Source of the DNA: a virus
Lineage: Duplodnaviria > Heunggongvirae > Uroviricota > Caudoviricetes
Length of the DNA stretch: 11,452 nucleotides
Virus record (IMG/VR): IMGVR_UViG_2778261693_000002
Coordinates: 1-11,452 of that record
Strand: one strand, 5' to 3'
The notes under the pieces are model-generated. The model was given only the letters and a program-made list of their open reading frames with translations. It was not told the origin of the DNA and searched no databases. This document shows positions 1 through 11,434 of the stretch, one piece after another (within the stretch, counting starts at the first letter, position 1; each line of letters opens with the position of its first letter). The position numbers were made by a program, and so were the translations under genes.

Positions 1-157
1 GCGTACCGGGTTGAGAAGCGGTGTAAGTGAACTGCAGTTGCCATGTTTTACGGCAGTGAGAGCAGAGATAGCGCTGATGTCCGGCGGTGCTTTTGCCGTT
101 ACGCACCACCCCGTCAGTAGCTGAACAGGAGGGACAGCTGATAGAAACAGAAGCCAC
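1..157 (-). CDS. insA: IS1 InsA (N-terminal transposase/repressor protein), 5' portion only; 3' end lies outside the window
   Basis: Minus-strand frame from GTG at 157-155 translates [52 protein letters not shown]..., matching remembered InsA; runs off the window edge. Confidence 0.75.
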
Positions 158-212
158 TGGAGCACCTCAAAAACACCATCATACACTAAATCAGTAAGTT
201 GGCAGCATTACC
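1..212 (-). mobile_element. IS1 insertion sequence, partial (left ~212 bp including terminal inverted repeat at 190-212; element continues beyond window start)
   Basis: Reverse complement of 1-212 reads GGTAATGCTGCCAACTTACTGATTTAGTGTATGATGGTGTTTTTGAGGTGCTCCAGTGGCTTCTGTTTC..., i.e. the IS1 left terminal IR followed by the insA start. Recognised from memory of IS1, not searched. Sequence changes abruptly to AT-rich DNA at 213. Confidence 0.85.
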
Positions 213-689
213 AATTTTCTCTTCTATATTACCAGTTTCAGCTGCAATTGCAGATATACCTGAATTATATAATTCTAATCTGCGTAAAATTTGCTTTGGT
301 AATAAATTTCTATCTTTCAGCCTCTCAAATGAAAAAAGGTCATTAATCCTATGAGAGATATATAACATTGAAATAACATAAGATGGTATAGCGGTTTGTT
401 GAACTGATGCGTTACCATTGTTTATATGATTAATATTTTGCTGAGCATGATCCAGAGTGTAAATGAGCGCATCAATTACTGCAATGTCATCTGAAGATGG
501 TACAAATTCCTGCATCTGATTAATTCTATCAGATAACATTTTTGGTAGTTCTATCAGATCCTCTTTATGTAAAAAAGGAAATGTGTACGGCCCAAGGTTT
601 ATAAAATCTTCCACAGGGAATACAAGACCATTAAGTGTTGTATGTAAATTATCTAGTTTCTCTTTTAATTCAGTTAGTTTTTCGTTCAT
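186..689 (-). CDS. AT-rich hypothetical protein (orphan cargo gene); frame runs into IS1 and stops 8 codons inside the IS1 terminal repeat, so the native C-terminus is probably lost
   Basis: Long ORF in low-GC DNA. ATG at 689 is preceded by AAGGA (revcomp of 698-702); the longer track start at 836 has no RBS and sits directly on the upstream terminator T-run. Last codons GNAANLLI* are encoded by IS1 sequence 186-212. No recognisable family. Confidence 0.45.
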   Translation of the reverse strand: MNEKLTELKEKLDNLHTTLNGLVFPVEDFINLGPYTFPFLHKEDLIELPKMLSDRINQMQEFVPSSDDIAVIDALIYTLDHAQQNINHINNGNASVQQTAIPSYVISMLYISHRINDLFSFERLKDRNLLPKQILRRLELYNSGISAIAAETGNIEEKIGNAANLLI

Positions 690-845
690 TAAAAAATCCT
701 TTATGACGCTATCGAACTTCCAGAGTAATCCGATAAAGATATCATAAGACAATATTTTGGTATAAACACTTATTGCGCGCGCTCGTATCCCCGCCACGCC
801 TGCCCGCTTTATGTAGTGGTTTTCATGCACCTGCATGATCTACGC

Positions 846-869
846 AAAAGCCCGCCAGTTCTGGCAGGC
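846..869 (-). terminator. Rho-independent terminator for the LexA-controlled operon (minus strand)
   Basis: Plus-strand AAAA (846-849) followed by GCCCGCCAG tt CTGGCAGGC (9-bp stem, one mismatch); on the minus strand this is a GC hairpin followed by TTTT, ~135 nt downstream of the DinI-like stop. Confidence 0.5.
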
Positions 870-1003
870 CTTAGCAAAAACGATCCTCAAACGATCATGC
901 GATCTCATGCGGCATAGACATGCACCACAGAGCTAACGCCTCGCACAGCTCGTTGTTCAACCTTGCTGACGCCAGAAGCAAGTTCAGACGCCAGCAACGT
1001 TTC

Positions 1004-1237
1004 TTAATGCAGCCAGCTGTCGTCTTCCCACACCTTCTGCATAATTTTCATCACTTGTTTTCTTTCTTCGTCCAGTTGCAGTCCGGTCAGTTCCACACCG
1101 TTAGAGCTACCTTTGCGGATACGAATTACCGTTTTGGGATACAGAGGGCGCAGATTGCGGTAAAGCTCGGATTCAAGGGCGTCCAGTGTAGACTGGCTAA
1201 CCTTCTGCTCTTTATCGATCATTATTTCAATGCGCAT
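1004..1237 (-). CDS. DinI-like DNA-damage-inducible protein
   Basis: From internal ATG at 1237 (RBS GAGGTG 5 nt upstream) the product MRIEIMIDKEQKVSQSTLDALESELYRNLRPLYPKTVIRIRKG...KIMQKVWEDDSWLH aligns by eye with E. coli DinI (MRIEVTIAK...IDALAGELSRRI...ETWESADDWF). The 101-aa track ORF from 1309 is an upstream extension. Confidence 0.8.
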   Translation of the reverse strand: MRIEIMIDKEQKVSQSTLDALESELYRNLRPLYPKTVIRIRKGSSNGVELTGLQLDEERKQVMKIMQKVWEDDSWLH

Positions 1238-1247
1238 AAAAGTCACC

Positions 1248-1436
1248 TCAGCTGATGACATCCATTGAGCGGTTGTATTCGTGGGTTCTGATTTTTGCCA
1301 TGAGTTCATCTGTCAGTTCAGAAACCCACTGCAGGGCCAGCCCCTTCTCTTCATCACTACACTCACTAGCCGCTACAAGCTTAAGAAAAAAATCAATGCG
1401 CTGGAGCTTCAAAGACTCCAAAAAATAGTCCTGCAT
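1248..1436 (-). CDS. Small hypothetical protein, first gene of the LexA-box operon (positional analogue of the phage 186 Tum antirepressor; function not recognisable)
   Basis: 62-aa ORF with strong RBS (AGGAGG, revcomp of 1441-1446) 4 nt before ATG at 1436; directly downstream of the LexA box; its 3' end carries the RBS of the DinI-like gene. Confidence 0.45.
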   Translation of the reverse strand: MQDYFLESLKLQRIDFFLKLVAASECSDEEKGLALQWVSELTDELMAKIRTHEYNRSMDVIS

Positions 1437-1588: not shown

Positions 1589-4003
1589 TTAATACAGGTT
1601 TCGCCACTTATCATCTTCCTGCAAACGCTGGTTCCGATAGAAGATACGCAGGCCTGCTCCTGACGGAATACTGCCGCCGCGAAGCAGTAAATCGACCTCT
1701 TTCTCGCTGCCATCAAATCCCCTGGACTTCAGTTCATACACGAGCTGCTGTCGCTGATGATCTGTAATTCGCTGTTTGTAGTCTTTACGCCGTTTCGGTT
1801 TCACAAGGCGTAACCTTGCTGCCAGTTCCCGGCGCTCTTTTTTGCTCATACTGTGCAGGTAATCGTGCAACTCCTTGTCATCCATGCGGGTGATATCCGT
1901 TCTGGTATCTCCATCAGCTGATTTGTCTTTCCCTTGTTGGTACAAATTTTCAGCAAGGGGACAGTTATTGCCACGAGTCCAAGGGGCGCAAGCGCCCTGG
2001 TCGGCTGCCGCCTCCTGAACGTCAACGGCCTTACGAACCATTTTCCACTTCACTGCATGAGTGCAGATCTTGCCCTCTGCAATGGGTGACCAGATGCCAT
2101 AAATACGAATACCGTGATCGCCATAGGCGGTTGGCTCTTCGTTGATTTCATAAGCGGTTCTGATGAGGTGATATTTGCGGGGAACCAGTACGCCGCCCTG
2201 CTTCATGATGTAGGTGGCAAAACAACCAGCATCAGCAGCAGCCAGGATGGCATCAAGGCGCGGGTTATCCAGTACCGACGCACCTGCTTTTTTGTCACCC
2301 TGTTGCCTTGCCGCCTGACCAGCCAGCAATCGCAGTTCACGGTAAGCCTGACGCCCCGGAATGCCAAAGAAGCGGAATTGCTGAACACGATGCAGAGACG
2401 CCCAGGCATTAACGTATTCAGCGTTATCACGCAGGGATTTCCCCGTTTCCTTACTGATCTCGCCAGCCAGACCACGCCCGTCAATATTCTTACTGATATA
2501 TTTCGCAATGTAGCTTGTCGGCGTTCCTTTGCGCGGGTTTATCAGCTCAGACTTAAAGCGTGGCCCCGTGTTATTGCCCAGCTCCTCGCGGTCTTCACGG
2601 ATGGCAAACTTACGCAACAATGCAGTAATGGCGCGGCGGTCTTTTTTGCGCATGAAACACAACAGGTGCCAGTGAACTGTGCCATCATGATGCGGCTCAG
2701 CCACCCGCACGCCATACCAGCGCAACCCGGCTTTGTGCATAGCCTTACGAAATGCAGCAAACATGCCGACCAGATAATCGCTGCTTTGTCTTACTGTCGC
2801 GTTGGTCCAGGTCGGGTTTGGCCTGCCGTTATTTAGCGTGGAATGGAAACGTGACGGACAGGTGATGGTGTAGAAAACGGCGCAGTCACCGCGCATTTCC
2901 GCGATAAGCTCCAGGCCTTTAACACAGGCCATCATCTCGTTGCGGCGATGCGCCGGGTTGCTGCTGCTGGCGTTTACCACATCCTCCATGTTCAGCGTGT
3001 CGCCGTCTTCGTTCACCAGTTCATGAGAACGGAAAAACTCCAGCGACTTACGGCGCTGCTCACGTTTATGCATCACGGCTTCATAGCTGACATAGGGAGA
3101 TGCTTTTTTGCTGACCAGGCAGACAGCACGCAACTGCTCTTCCCGCCATTCGCAACGCATCTTCCATAATTTCCGATACCACCAGTCGGCGCACAGCATA
3201 CGCGCCAGCGAACCCGGAATGCGTTCATAAGGCACAGGTTTGCGGCGGTTTCTTTTCCGGCGGAGTTGCTCAAACGCAGGCGGTATGACATCCAGTCGCA
3301 GGGTTTCTGCAGCCACCTTTTCCCATGTCTTGCGGATTTCTTCTGGCTTAACATCATCGGAGGCGTACAAATCACCACAAGCGGCATCAAGACACATGCT
3401 CATATGCGCAGCGACAAGGGTAGACAGGCGTTTCACCTGATCCTGACTCATTTCAGGCAGGATCAGCAGACCGTCCAGCCCTTCATGGCTTGCCATAAAC
3501 CGAAAAGATGCAGATAGCTGGCTGTCGCGTACATGCTCCAGTCGTTCCAGACATGGCTTAATCGTCTCACGCAAATAGCGGGAATAAGCCTTTGGCCTGC
3601 CCAGGCTGCTGAAGTATTCAATACGTTGCATCAGCGGCTTGCTGATATGGGAAGGCTGGGCGTTGACGTCAGCCAGAATGACCATGTCTGGATTAAAACG
3701 CTGCTGCTCATGCGCCATCTTTGCCCGGCTAATGAGCTTATCCTGCTCCATTTCGCGTTGGACAGGATCACGGGATTCATTAAAGAAATAACGCTCCCAG
3801 ACCTGATCACTTAGTGCCTCGCGGCGCAGTTGTTCCTGCTCGTTATCGGTAGCGTACAAAGTGATCAGGTTTGAAAGCGCAGAAACCGGCGCAACTTCCA
3901 CCGGGTCCAGATAAGGGTTAATGGCCTTTTTCGGGCTGTTCCATGAGAATGCTGCGGCGACCTCGTTAAAGCCGCTGCAGTTGTTCATATCAGCATGGCT
4001 CAT
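1589..4003 (-). CDS. Replication initiation endonuclease, phage P2 gpA family (HUH rolling-circle initiator)
   Basis: 804-aa ORF; HUH motif VHWHLLCF and paired-tyrosine active-site motif YIAKYISK; ATG 4003 overlaps the upstream Dam stop (ATGA); RBS GGAG 8 nt upstream. Confidence 0.9.
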
Positions 4004-4857
4004 GCACGCACTCCGTACACGGCAGAACTATCCACGCCACGCGAAGGATCAAATCCCATCCAACAGCGCGGCCCGGAAACAGCGATGATTTCTGTTGCAG
4101 ATTTACTCTCACCAGCTGCTACACCGATGCTGCGTTTTGCCTTGATGTAGTGGTGAGTAAAATTGCGATACAGCGAACGGATCAGGGATGTATCACTGTT
4201 AGAAACAATGACCGGATGTCCTTCTGATGACCGATGTTCAAGAACGGATGCCAGGTGATACTGGTCATCTTCAGTGAAACCATCAGTGTGATAGCCGGAA
4301 AACGTACCGTCATACGGCGGATCGCAATACACCACATCCCCCACCTGCAGCATCGCCAGCGTTTCATCAAAGCTTGCGCAGATAAACGTTGCACGCTGGG
4401 CCTTTTCTGCAAATGCGCGAATTTCTTTTTCAGGGAAATACGGATTTTTATAATTACCGTAGGGAATGTTGAAATGCCCGCTCTTGTTATAGCGACATAA
4501 ACCACGGTAACCGTGACGATTGAGATACAGGAAATATACCGCTTTCATGAAATCAGTAATTTCAGTTGAGTAATTAAACTCCTGCCTTATGTTGTAATAA
4601 GCCACCTCCCTGTTTGCGATCTCAAATAAAACTCTGGCGCGAGATATAAACGATTCACAATCAGCAGCAACCTTTTTATAGAGGTTGATTAAATCAGGAT
4701 TAATATCCGCAACAAGATAGCTGGGGTAATCCGTCTCCATCATCACAGCACAGGAACCCGCGAAAGGTTCAACCAGTCGCGGGCCAGCAGGAAGATGTTT
4801 TTTCAGTTCGGACATAATGGCAGTTTTATTACCCGCCCATTTCAGGATGGTGCTCAT
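4000..4857 (-). CDS. dam: DNA adenine methyltransferase (Dam-like, N6-adenine, GATC class)
   Basis: 285-aa ORF with KWAGNK, FAGSCAV (AdoMet-binding region) and catalytic DPPY motif ([10 protein letters not shown]); RBS GGAGGTG; start overlaps the stop of the upstream gene (ATGA). Confidence 0.85.
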
Positions 4858-7435: not shown

Positions 7436-8452
7436 ATGACTGTCAGAAAACAGCCAAACGGCAAATGGTTGTGTGAGTGCTATCCCAATGGACGCAATGG
7501 CAAGCGCGTGCGTAAGCAATTTGCTACGAAAGGAGAAGCCATTGCTTTTGAAAGCTTCACAATGGAAGAAGTGAATAAAAAACCGTGGCTAGGTGAAAAG
7601 GATGATCGGCGACGCCTATCAGAATTAATTGAGCTTTGGTATTCCCTGTATGGTCAGACACTCGCAGACCCCAGGCGCCTCATGGCGAAACTTAGAATTA
7701 TCTGTAATGGTCTAGGCGACCCCATCGCCTCAGAACTGACAGCCGGTGACTTTACGAAATACCGCGAAGCACGGTTAAAAGGCGACGTTCGTAACGAAGA
7801 CGGCACACTAATGTCGCCAGTAAAACCACGCACGGTGAATCTTGAGCAACGTAACCTATCATCGGTTTTCGGCACATTGAAAAAACTAGGCCACTGGTCA
7901 GCACCAAATCCTCTCGCCGGGCTGCCAACATTTAAAATCGCTGAGGGGGAACTGGCGTTCCTGACCTCGGAAGAAATTAAACGTCTGCTAGATGCCTGCG
8001 CTGATTCTCAAAACCCCAGTCTGCTTTTGATTGCAAAAATATGCCTGGCCACCGGCGCACGCTGGAGTGAAGCCGAAAACCTGCAGGGCCATCAGTTATC
8101 TAAATACCGCATCACTTATACCAAGACGAAGGGCAAGAAAAACCGCACCGTGCCGATATCTCAAGATCTGTATGACGAACTCCCCAAGAACAGAGGGAAG
8201 CTATTCACTCCGTGCAGAAAAGCCTTTGAACGGGCAGTAAAGCGAGCTGGCATCGAGCTGCCAGAGGGCCAATGCACTCACGTGCTACGTCATACATTCG
8301 CCAGTCATTTTATGATGAATGGCGGAAACATACTGGTGCTACGCGATATTCTGGGCCATGCCGATATAAAAATGACGATGATTTACGCCCACTTTTCGCC
8401 CGATCACCTTGAAGATGCGGTTACTAAAAACCCTTTATGCAACTTAAGATAA
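7436..8452 (+). CDS. int: Tyrosine site-specific integrase (P2/186 type)
   Basis: 338-aa ORF; catalytic-domain signature ARWSE...HVLRHTFASHF...GHADIKMTMIYAHF (R, H-x-x-R, Y); size and position typical of P2-like int. Confidence 0.9.
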   Translation: MTVRKQPNGKWLCECYPNGRNGKRVRKQFATKGEAIAFESFTMEEVNKKPWLGEKDDRRRLSELIELWYSLYGQTLADPRRLMAKLRIICNGLGDPIASELTAGDFTKYREARLKGDVRNEDGTLMSPVKPRTVNLEQRNLSSVFGTLKKLGHWSAPNPLAGLPTFKIAEGELAFLTSEEIKRLLDACADSQNPSLLLIAKICLATGARWSEAENLQGHQLSKYRITYTKTKGKKNRTVPISQDLYDELPKNRGKLFTPCRKAFERAVKRAGIELPEGQCTHVLRHTFASHFMMNGGNILVLRDILGHADIKMTMIYAHFSPDHLEDAVTKNPLCNLR

Positions 8453-8829: not shown

Positions 8830-10566
8830 CTACTCAAGAAGATATTCTAACTCATCTTTTATCGGGATAACTTGCTCATAAAGTCGGTGATATGACTTCC
8901 CAATTGCGCCTCTGAATTGTATTAACTTTGGTGGCTTGTTACCTATATTAATAATATGGTCTTGGGCTATACCTGGGTAGGGATCAATAAATACAATTTC
9001 AGATATACCTAACTGATAAGCTTTTTTCGCACACAGCTCACAGGGACTGGCAGTTGTATATAACCTTCCCCCCTGAACGCCAATACCACCATATTTTGCA
9101 AGTTGTAAAAAAGCGTTTTCCTCAGCATGTAATGCACGTGTATGAACTTGATTACCTTTTTTATCTTTATCAAGATCATTATGTATATCTTTAAAACAAT
9201 AAGATAAGTTCCTGCCTCTATAAATATCACCAGTTTTATCTATCGCCCTAAAATTTAAGAGTTTCTCATTAGCCTTAATTCTGAAAGAACTATTATTTCT
9301 CTCATAATGACTGTACACTTTTTCATCAAAGTCGTTCATTAGGCCATCTAGCGATCTCATAGAGCAAGGAATCTGACCGTTGGCAACATCATTCCAACCT
9401 ACTGATTTTATTGAATTGTCACCATCAGTTACTACAGCTCCCACCTGTCTAGATATACAACCAGAGTTTAATTTTACCGTATACGCAACTTGCATAACCC
9501 TTTCCATTGCAGTAGGTGTTATCAGACCAGGATGCTTCATCAGTGCGATGTACCACGCTAATTGTGCTTTTAAAATATTATCATTATCAAATTCATTTTT
9601 TGGGTTAAAAATGTGTATATCTGATAGTTCAATACATTTAGTTACATTTGGATTAGTGAGATGTTTGTAAGAGTTATCACCTTTACCTGACTCTACAGAA
9701 TCTATTTCCTCTATCTGCTTTTCAGAAAACTTATGTAGTTTCCGCAAATAGTTTGTTCGATGTTCATCTGGGGCATTTATTGACATTAAATGAAATGCAG
9801 AATATCTATCCTTAAAAAATTTTGCTTCATATGGATTTCTAATAGCATCTATGACAATTAATGCGTTATCTCTTTTGCTTTTTCTTATTAATTTAATAAC
9901 CCTATTAATAGTTTCCGGCAAATGAAAAACAGATTTAGGTATAAACTCTTTATCTTCAAAATCGACTTCAATACGCCCACGGCGTCTAATTGACTTACCT
10001 GCTAACTGATAGACTGAAACATATAAATTTGAGTTTATCGCATTTAGTTCAGCTTTGAATTCCTTAGTAAATTTTCTAACTAACCTCAAAATTGATATAA
10101 ATTTATTAATCGTTTTTTCATTAAGCTTCAATTCACTATTATGATCAAGCAAATTCTCAATTACATTTTTAAATCTTGTTAAAATTAGATTATCTGAGAA
10201 TACACCAAAAGTTAATACATTATCTAAATGCTCTTTACTGATAGATTTATTAGATGACAGAATGAATTCAGAAGCTTCTTCAACTGTTAACATCAAAAGA
10301 TACGCTGAGATTAGGTCACTCACCTTAATTGAGTAAAAATTTTCCCAGTGATTTTCTGCGAATTTTTTAACTATATTATAACGATGGACATCCAATCCCT
10401 TGTAAAAACCCTGTAATTTACTTACATCAGGGAAGACTGTTTTTTCGTTTTCAAGAATATTAGCTGTTGTTGTGCAACCAGAACCAGTTCGACCTGTCAA
10501 ACCGACTAAAATAAACTGCCCATTTTCAAGGAAAAGCTCACTAACGAATTTTTTTTCTTTCATCAC
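8830..10566 (-). CDS. P-loop-kinase-like + dCMP/cytidine-deaminase fusion protein (AvcD/DCD-like candidate anti-phage deoxynucleotide deaminase)
   Basis: 578-aa ORF in low-GC DNA. N-terminal Walker-A-like VGLTGRTGSGCTT (10468-10503, Lys replaced by Cys). C-terminal deaminase signatures RQVGAVV, zinc ligands HAE (9121-9129) and PCELC (9031-9045). Start is GTG 10566 or ATG 10563. Family assignment from memory, no search. Confidence 0.75.
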   Translation of the reverse strand: MMKEKKFVSELFLENGQFILVGLTGRTGSGCTTTANILENEKTVFPDVSKLQGFYKGLDVHRYNIVKKFAENHWENFYSIKVSDLISAYLLMLTVEEASEFILSSNKSISKEHLDNVLTFGVFSDNLILTRFKNVIENLLDHNSELKLNEKTINKFISILRLVRKFTKEFKAELNAINSNLYVSVYQLAGKSIRRRGRIEVDFEDKEFIPKSVFHLPETINRVIKLIRKSKRDNALIVIDAIRNPYEAKFFKDRYSAFHLMSINAPDEHRTNYLRKLHKFSEKQIEEIDSVESGKGDNSYKHLTNPNVTKCIELSDIHIFNPKNEFDNDNILKAQLAWYIALMKHPGLITPTAMERVMQVAYTVKLNSGCISRQVGAVVTDGDNSIKSVGWNDVANGQIPCSMRSLDGLMNDFDEKVYSHYERNNSSFRIKANEKLLNFRAIDKTGDIYRGRNLSYCFKDIHNDLDKDKKGNQVHTRALHAEENAFLQLAKYGGIGVQGGRLYTTASPCELCAKKAYQLGISEIVFIDPYPGIAQDHIINIGNKPPKLIQFRGAIGKSYHRLYEQVIPIKDELEYLLE

Positions 10567-10987: not shown

Positions 10988-11434
10988 TTGGCAAGAACGA
11001 CACGCCCCCTGACCAACACAGAAGTACTGCGCGCTAAAGCGTTAGAAAAGGATCTAACGTTGCATGATGGCGATGGTCTTTTTCTACTCGTTAAAACGAA
11101 CGGTAAGAAGTTATGGCGTTTCCGTTATCAACGTCCGGCAACAAAGCAGCGGACAATGATGGGGCTAGGTACCTTCCCAGCTCTTTCACTTGCTGACGCC
11201 CGACGGTTAAGAGCGGATTACCTTTCCTTGTTAGCCAACGGAATTGACCCGCAAATTCAAGCTGAAATTGCAGAGGAACAGCAGCAAATCGCACAGGACA
11301 GTATTTTTACAACGGTCGCCGCTAAGGAAGGTGCGAATAAGCAGGTCATTTCTTCCCAAGCTGACTCGTTGATTAAAATTTCGCGGATCTGGGCCGATTT
11401 TTTTCCCGCAAACACATCGAATCAGCCTATTTAG
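10988..11434 (+). pseudogene. P4-type integrase, N-terminal fragment (~110 aa of arm-binding domain, then divergent tail and premature stop)
   Basis: TTG start with strong RBS AAGGAG; MARTTRPLTNTEVLRAKALEKDLTLHDGDGLFLLVKTNGKKLWRFRYQRPATKQRTMMGLGTFPALSLADARRLRADYLSLLANGIDP fits the N-terminus of P4/CP4-57-family integrases (~400 aa full length) as remembered; ORF ends at 148 aa with no catalytic domain. Confidence 0.55.

Follow-up and report, generated by a model that had tools for sequence, protein, structure and literature searches.

The window analysed here is the entire draft contig NLHF01000087.1, an 11,452-bp stretch of the short-read Escherichia coli assembly GCA_002226055.1 that ends inside IS1. 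Next to the IS1 sequence lies a minus-strand ORF (186..836) in the accessory region of a P2-type prophage, and the question it raises is whether this is a genuine gene cut short by the insertion sequence and, if so, what the complete gene encodes. Counted from the ATG at position 836 in the ORF listing of the window, the product would be 216 aa long, and no database record was found for this version. The ATG at 836 was rejected as the start, as the interval 690-836 consists of non-coding leader and conserved phage backbone and all homologues begin at the position equivalent to 689. The ATG at 689, which a reading of the sequence alone had proposed as the start, is preceded by AAGGA, is the start of the annotated intact allele and corresponds to the nearly invariant M1 of the family. 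The features of the truncated gene and its junction with IS1 are as follows.

1..212, minus strand: IS1 end, comprising the terminal inverted repeat and the 5' part of insA, in the same orientation as the truncated gene
186..212, minus strand: IS1-encoded tail of 8 codons and the stop TAG (186-188), from the sequence read and the alignment
186..689, minus strand: chimeric ORF of 167 aa (WP_244565659.1), made up of 159 cargo-gene codons, 8 IS1 codons (GNAANLLI) and TAG
213-221: candidate 9-bp target sequence AATTTTCTC, the proposed duplication, adjoining the IS1 end
213..689, minus strand: retained codons 1-159 of a 463-aa hotspot gene, with the helical bundle of the N-terminus (about residues 1-120) and a portion of the linker
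697..701, minus strand: Shine-Dalgarno sequence AAGGA, 7 nt upstream of the ATG at 689, read from the sequence

The low GC content of the ORF was reproduced by measurement, with values of 0.32-0.33 over positions 151-750 compared with about 0.5 in the adjacent phage backbone. The ORF is no product of chance, since its homologues are conserved across phyla at identities ranging from 100% to about 30%.

Alignment of window positions 1-212 with the annotated IS1B element of E. coli ESDR8 was gapless and revealed a single mismatch (position 209). The IS1 terminal sequence ...GGCAGCATTACC finishes at position 212, and the terminal inverted repeat GGT(A/G)ATGCTGCCAACTTACTGAT is present, the reverse complement of 190-212 being GGTAATGCTGCCAACTTACTGAT. 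A query containing 1-212 matched E. coli genomes at tens of thousands of sites, mainly copies of IS1. Full-length IS1 carries insA/insB and measures 768 bp; the window shows 212 bp of it, and the remainder lies past the contig end. The reading frame runs across the junction, such that the intact protein reads ...GNIEEKI-KTINEAYD... and the window product reads ...GNIEEKI-GNAANLLI followed by the stop codon. As the two sequences diverge after GNIEEKI (codon 159), exactly 8 codons are encoded by IS1. The sequence-only reading had placed the IS1 junction at 212, the TAG inside the IS1 repeat and the last 8 codons in IS1, and all of these coordinates are correct.

Positions 213-1500 of the window are 99.3% identical to E. 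coli CP61_Sichuan, in which the DNA continues without IS1 and the intact gene (1,392 bp) encodes a 463-aa 'hypothetical protein', WP_001583354.1. Codons 1-159 of the window specify a protein sequence identical to that of WP_001583354.1, with one synonymous base change (window position 396). The insertion is therefore recent, given that the retained part differs from intact alleles by this one base. A search for intact homologues in prophages without IS1 had been suggested as a check, and the full-length 463-aa gene of CP61_Sichuan is such a homologue; the suspicion that the original C-terminus was missing proved right, with 304 residues gone. We also looked for a natural C-terminus at the truncation point. 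Homologues are nearly all 420-470 aa in length, and residue 159 is thus not a natural end of the protein. The 304 lost residues include a helical stalk of about 100 residues, a two-helix transmembrane hairpin and a juxtamembrane module (243-410). With the membrane hairpin and the conserved module lost, the gene is inactivated, and the window copy is almost certainly non-functional as a member of its family. Taken together, these data show the 5' third of a 463-codon P2-like prophage accessory gene that is interrupted by IS1 after codon 159. Taken whole, the explanation that best fits the locus, and one we regard as highly probable, is that of an IS1-interrupted and inactivated cargo gene of the P2 hotspot. 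The same IS1 insertion was found in no complete E. coli genome searched.

IS1 causes adjacent deletions, and the 3' two-thirds of the gene could have been removed by such a deletion or by a rearrangement, possibly along with the portal and terminase genes, leaving a crippled prophage. The end of the contig inside IS1 and the occurrence of decayed P2 prophages among the family loci (L088, L091) would both fit this explanation, and PMC5009759 has also been pointed to for adjacent deletions caused by IS1. Against it stands a 286-aa E. coli protein, WP_244565650.1, which begins at the internal Met178, the first in-frame start codon past the junction, and reaches the natural C-terminus. Its accession number is nine away from that of the window's WP_244565659.1, a proximity that suggests, circumstantially, a different contig of this assembly as the location of the remaining 3' sequence. 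A second argument against a deletion comes from E. coli ESDR8 (locus L002, NZ_CM169472.1), in which a complete 768-bp IS1 at 3445-4212 interrupts this gene at a site 135 bp deeper than that of the window; this is a clean insertion flanked by an 8-bp target duplication, TCTTTAAG, with both halves of the gene kept. We consider an adjacent deletion unlikely. If the window instead carries a simple insertion, the other end of IS1 would be followed by GAGAAAATT (the duplicated AATTTTCTC) and then by codons 160-463.

It is highly improbable that the 167-aa product is itself functional, either with a natural C-terminus or in a new role such as a soluble, sensor-only decoy. The whole of the confidently folded bundle (residues 1-120, pLDDT > 93) is present, and the ribosome-binding site and leader have been kept. 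Nevertheless, full-length homologues are about 400-490 aa in length, the shorter entries being contig-end partials, frameshifts or IS-disrupted copies; the final 8 residues are IS1 repeat sequence, and the best-conserved part of the family is missing. The least probable account is that the assembly falsely joined the gene to a collapsed IS1 repeat, in a short-read draft contig ending in a multi-copy sequence, and that the gene is intact in the real genome. Against this account stand the junction itself, at which the gene adjoins precisely the last base of the IS1 inverted repeat, as in real transposition, the presence of the same chimeric protein in the Logan assembly of SRR3987974 (possibly the same strain), and the existence of a separate ORF for the C-terminal part under a nearby accession number. 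The window copy is thus an ordinary IS1-generated pseudogene of a P2-hotspot cargo gene, and is best annotated as such rather than as a hypothetical protein of 167 aa or 216 aa.

The insertion in ESDR8 is an event independent of that in the window. Close to its C-terminus, a homologue from Yersinia enterocolitica, WP_439324654.1 (P0056; 447 aa, about 64% identical), probably bears the mark of a third IS1 insertion. It ends ...KKKGDAANLLI; the tail GDAANLLI corresponds to the IS1 inverted repeat in the same frame as GNAANLLI of the window. IS1 prefers AT-rich targets and generates duplications of 8-9 bp (PMC5009759), and in a gene with 33% GC this preference would suffice to explain repeated hits without selection. 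Selection against a costly or self-toxic gene is a possible force behind the IS1 hits. Two or three independent IS1 disruptions of a hotspot gene are now known, and they are relevant to a recently made claim, according to which cargo in hotspots is exchanged instead of decaying into pseudogenes.

Widespread IS insertion was also considered for the 'partial' fragments of the gene at contig ends and was rejected; their ends are scattered and carry no IS sequence, and the fragments are therefore assembly breaks. Many drafts of E. coli, Salmonella and Klebsiella (clusters around P0297-P0319) break at codons ~105-178 of the gene. These breaks are likely due to poor coverage or assembly of the AT-rich stretch, not to transposition.

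We then considered the position of the gene. In the window the order is gpA (1589-4003), a 62-aa gene, DinI and the truncated gene, and at the intact locus of CP61_Sichuan the gene and the portal gene gpQ are convergent, 27 bp separating the end of the former from the latter. Rousset et al. (2022) described the gpA-gpQ interval as a diversity hotspot rich in anti-phage genes, in which P2 itself carries old and tin, and their Table S5A lists WP_001583354 as 'hypothetical' at one hotspot locus, although not among the systems that were cloned; P2 hotspots also carry non-defence cargo, for example partition systems and toxins (PMC9122126). The gene thus lies where P2-type phages carry variable genes such as old and tin, as the sequence-only reading had stated. 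Its character as variable cargo is supported by the distribution of the allele, found in only 13 of 5,426 complete genomes of E. coli, and by alignments in which other P2-like prophages share the backbone only from about 763-776, where the boundary between cassette and backbone falls. The same slot beside the portal gene is filled in E. coli by a subfamily with 65% identity and in Serratia by one with 50% identity. The features between the truncated gene and gpA are as follows.

690..775, minus strand: AT-rich 5' non-coding leader of the cargo cassette; other P2-like prophages without the gene align only from 763-776
846..872, minus strand: stem-loop followed by UUUU (folding energy -22.6 kcal/mol, z = -3.9, 0 of 200 shuffles as good)
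1004-1240, minus strand: DinI, downstream of the LexA-box pattern
1248-1436, minus strand: 62-aa ORF, downstream of the LexA-box pattern

A LexA-box pattern of the form CTGT-N8-ACAG, CTGTTTATATTTACAG, is located at 1479-1494, upstream of the 62-aa ORF and the DinI operon, and agrees with the designation of this segment as an SOS operon. The stem-loop sits just downstream of DinI and probably serves as intrinsic terminator for the SOS/DinI operon that precedes it. It was not flagged by a consensus terminator scan, owing to its run of only 4 U. A terminator at this position suggests that the cargo gene forms a separate transcription unit. The leader probably holds the cargo gene's own promoter; a consensus promoter scan of 690..775 found none.

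An optional second cargo gene, encoding a 225-aa hypothetical protein (WP_000700647.1) without a Pfam or PADLOC match, was observed between DinI and the family gene in HS-type prophages of E. coli (L002, 5115-5792, minus strand; L086 and L090, 5047-5724). It is absent from the prophage of the window.

Full-length homologues were also observed in decayed P2-type prophages of E. coli (L088, 6001-7365) and Serratia (L091/L092, 6001-7380), in which genes for the portal, the terminase or structural proteins have been truncated or lost. This observation suggests that the cargo gene is retained after the death of the phage.

Beyond the prophage, the window contains another AT-rich ORF of 578 aa (8830-10566, minus strand), which matched the PADLOC 'dCTPase' model (E = 1.4e-145) and the Pfam family dCMP_cyt_deam_1 (8e-15). 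Judged by these matches, it is a known defence gene, encoding a dCTP deaminase that acts in nucleotide-depletion defence. It lies just outside the prophage, past the P2-type integrase (7436-8452). Close to the contig end, a 148-aa ORF at 10988-11434 (plus strand) contains an Arm-DNA-bind_3 domain (E = 1e-23) and appears to encode the N-terminal portion of another integrase. With this second integrase, the dCTP deaminase gene would be flanked by integrase genes on both sides, in the manner of a separately integrated islet.

To place the intact protein, its family was examined in sequence databases. At least 1,600 homologue matches were present in a 90%-clustered database, and there were about 1,476 representatives of 50%-identity clusters at E <= 1e-3 and 423 at E <= 1e-30. 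The family spans Pseudomonadota, Bacteroidota, Acidobacteriota, Spirochaetota, Verrucomicrobiota, Nitrospirota and other phyla, and beyond Enterobacterales its homologues were found in at least 249 genomes, 17 plasmids and one isolated Providencia phage. All-against-all BLAST of 973 neighbouring ORFs from 82 loci revealed no conserved partner gene in more than 6 of about 80 loci. Recurrent neighbours were portal proteins (in P2-like prophages), serine recombinases and tyrosine integrases; others included type I/II/III/IV restriction genes, AbiU, AbiEii, Old, PD-T4-2 and mads, and many neighbours of the distant homologues were housekeeping genes flanking the insertion. The mobile distribution and the absence of a shared partner together indicate a self-contained, horizontally mobile single-gene module.

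The sequence-only reading had recognised no known family. This held for Pfam, NCBIfam, PADLOC and PDB, and did not hold for PHROG, as the function-unannotated PHROG 34659 matched the intact protein at E = 6.3e-87 (protein residues 55-438 on profile positions 55-413 of 433) and the window fragment at E = 4e-7. Scans of Pfam, NCBIfam and PADLOC with the intact protein, the fragment and 40 diverse members produced only sub-threshold coiled-coil or transmembrane noise. PADLOC-DB 2.0.0, scanned with five family members, gave only weak coiled-coil matches to JetC, LmuB, the ZorA tail and DruC (E = 5e-6 to 0.09); profile searches of PDB sequences with 27 and 150 members gave coiled-coil noise only, and Foldseek against PDB and BFVD gave nothing at E <= 0.001. 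DUF4126, ATG17, JetC, LmuB and the ZorA tail were each rejected as the family of this protein, their matches being sub-threshold coiled-coil or transmembrane noise. For DUF4126, the name that NCBI gives to some fragments, the match was limited to the hairpin and reached 17.4 bits (E = 0.0037) compared with a Pfam gathering threshold of 27.5 bits, and this family was not among the 25 most matched by the 40 diverse members. A search of the literature and supplementary tables with accessions, the PHROG identifier and sequence motifs returned only the 'hypothetical' entry in Table S5A of Rousset 2022; the supplementary tables of DefensePredictor contained neither these accessions nor these motifs.

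An AlphaFold2 model of the intact protein, built on 150 diverse homologues, had a mean pLDDT of 85.6 and a pTM of only 0.44, which makes the placement of its domains relative to one another tentative. In this model, residues 1-120 form an N-terminal helical bundle (pLDDT > 93), residues 121-175 form a poorly defined linker with the conserved motif KI.TINEAYDAAE.LPTT, and residues 176-306 form a single continuous helix, the last turns of which are the first transmembrane segment. A short loop leads to a return helix (313-368) that contains the second transmembrane segment, followed by a conserved juxtamembrane region. Hydropathy analysis supports two membrane segments, at about 280-300 and 315-337. 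Mean identity to the E. coli protein across the family was 56% for residues 243-410, 23% for residues 1-157 and 15% for the stalk, and the residues G261, L262, F266, W332, W335, D350, Y351, K354, G363, P391 and R393 around the hairpin are invariant. The window therefore keeps the variable N-terminal bundle, and everything that defines the family is lost.

In tblastn searches, plasmid matches from Vibrio parahaemolyticus and Vibrio sp. (H56-H61) aligned to residues 237-408 only, at about 25% identity. These alignments suggest that the conserved module 237-408 may exist with other N-terminal regions or with none.

The reading of the intact protein that we tentatively favour is that of a stand-alone, inner-membrane-anchored anti-phage protein acting in abortive infection or superinfection exclusion. 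In such a protein, the fast-evolving cytoplasmic N-terminal helical bundle would sense a cue of infection, the stalk would relay the signal to the conserved membrane hairpin module, and this module would then either oligomerise and compromise the membrane or block the entry of phage DNA. An anti-phage role is suggested by the position in the hotspot, the stand-alone mobile distribution, the pattern of a variable sensor with a conserved effector, and the retention of the gene in decayed prophages. In P4-satellite hotspots, six of eight randomly chosen loci of unknown function protected against phage when tested (PMC13586616). Against a defence role, no defence model was matched beyond coiled-coil noise, and hotspots hold non-defence cargo too.

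These last two points also speak for a non-immune function, in lysogenic conversion, in the physiology of the host envelope or to the benefit of the phage through control of lysis or induction, and we hold this to be a serious possibility, if a slightly less favoured one. The JGI automatic names of two homologues, ATP synthase membrane subunits, and the frequent location of distant homologues beside housekeeping genes point in the same direction. A non-immune function fits less well with a gene that stands alone, with no conserved partner, in prophages, plasmids and recombinase-flanked islets of many phyla, that stays intact in decayed prophages, and in whose product the N-terminal region is variable and the membrane module conserved; the gene also lies outside the P2 lysis cassette. 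With an anti-phage role as the favoured reading, the family is a reasonable candidate for a new single-gene membrane defence. It is large, compact and stand-alone, is absent from Pfam and from the searched defence databases, and sits in a well-validated hotspot; its seat in the hotspot and its retention in decayed prophages make it a well-justified candidate for phage challenge.

Several known systems resemble this gene or its fate. The family is a direct profile member of PHROG 34659, and PHROG 30912 is more distant; both are phage families without an assigned function, whereas the family described here extends past phages into chromosomal islets and plasmids. The IS1 insertions recall the transposition of insertion sequences into cas genes (PMC10359306), in which a mobile IS likewise disrupts an accessory, possibly costly gene related to mobile elements; the gene described here has been hit independently more than once. 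In contrast to that case, the immune role of the target is putative here, and the recurrence is explicable by the AT preference of IS1 without selection.

The N-terminal bundle may resemble the four-helix-bundle executioner domain of MLKL and the coiled-coil domains of plant CC-NLRs (Rx CC, Sw-5b). A more far-reaching idea, which we think quite unlikely, is that the family is an undescribed single-protein anti-phage system in which an MLKL/CC-NLR-like bundle on a stalk of about 15 nm controls a killing two-helix module, with the IS1 hits reflecting selection against self-toxicity. If true, the protein would be a bacterial, membrane-tethered counterpart of the eukaryotic four-helix-bundle executioners.

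Among abortive-infection systems, the transmembrane effectors (for example the 2TM + 1TM + TIR system of the P2-like phage AC1) share with the cargo protein the same hotspot, a membrane hairpin and a predicted action at the inner membrane. Unlike these effectors, the cargo protein has no PADLOC match, stands alone without an enzymatic or signalling partner, and possesses a long helical stalk and an N-terminal domain of its own. The closest parallel in position is the old/tin locus of P2, which occupies the same slot next to cos, between gpA with the SOS/DinI operon and gpQ, and which likewise holds AT-rich, swappable and often single-gene cargo; the cargo protein nevertheless differs from both Old (an ATPase/TOPRIM nuclease) and Tin in sequence and in domain content.
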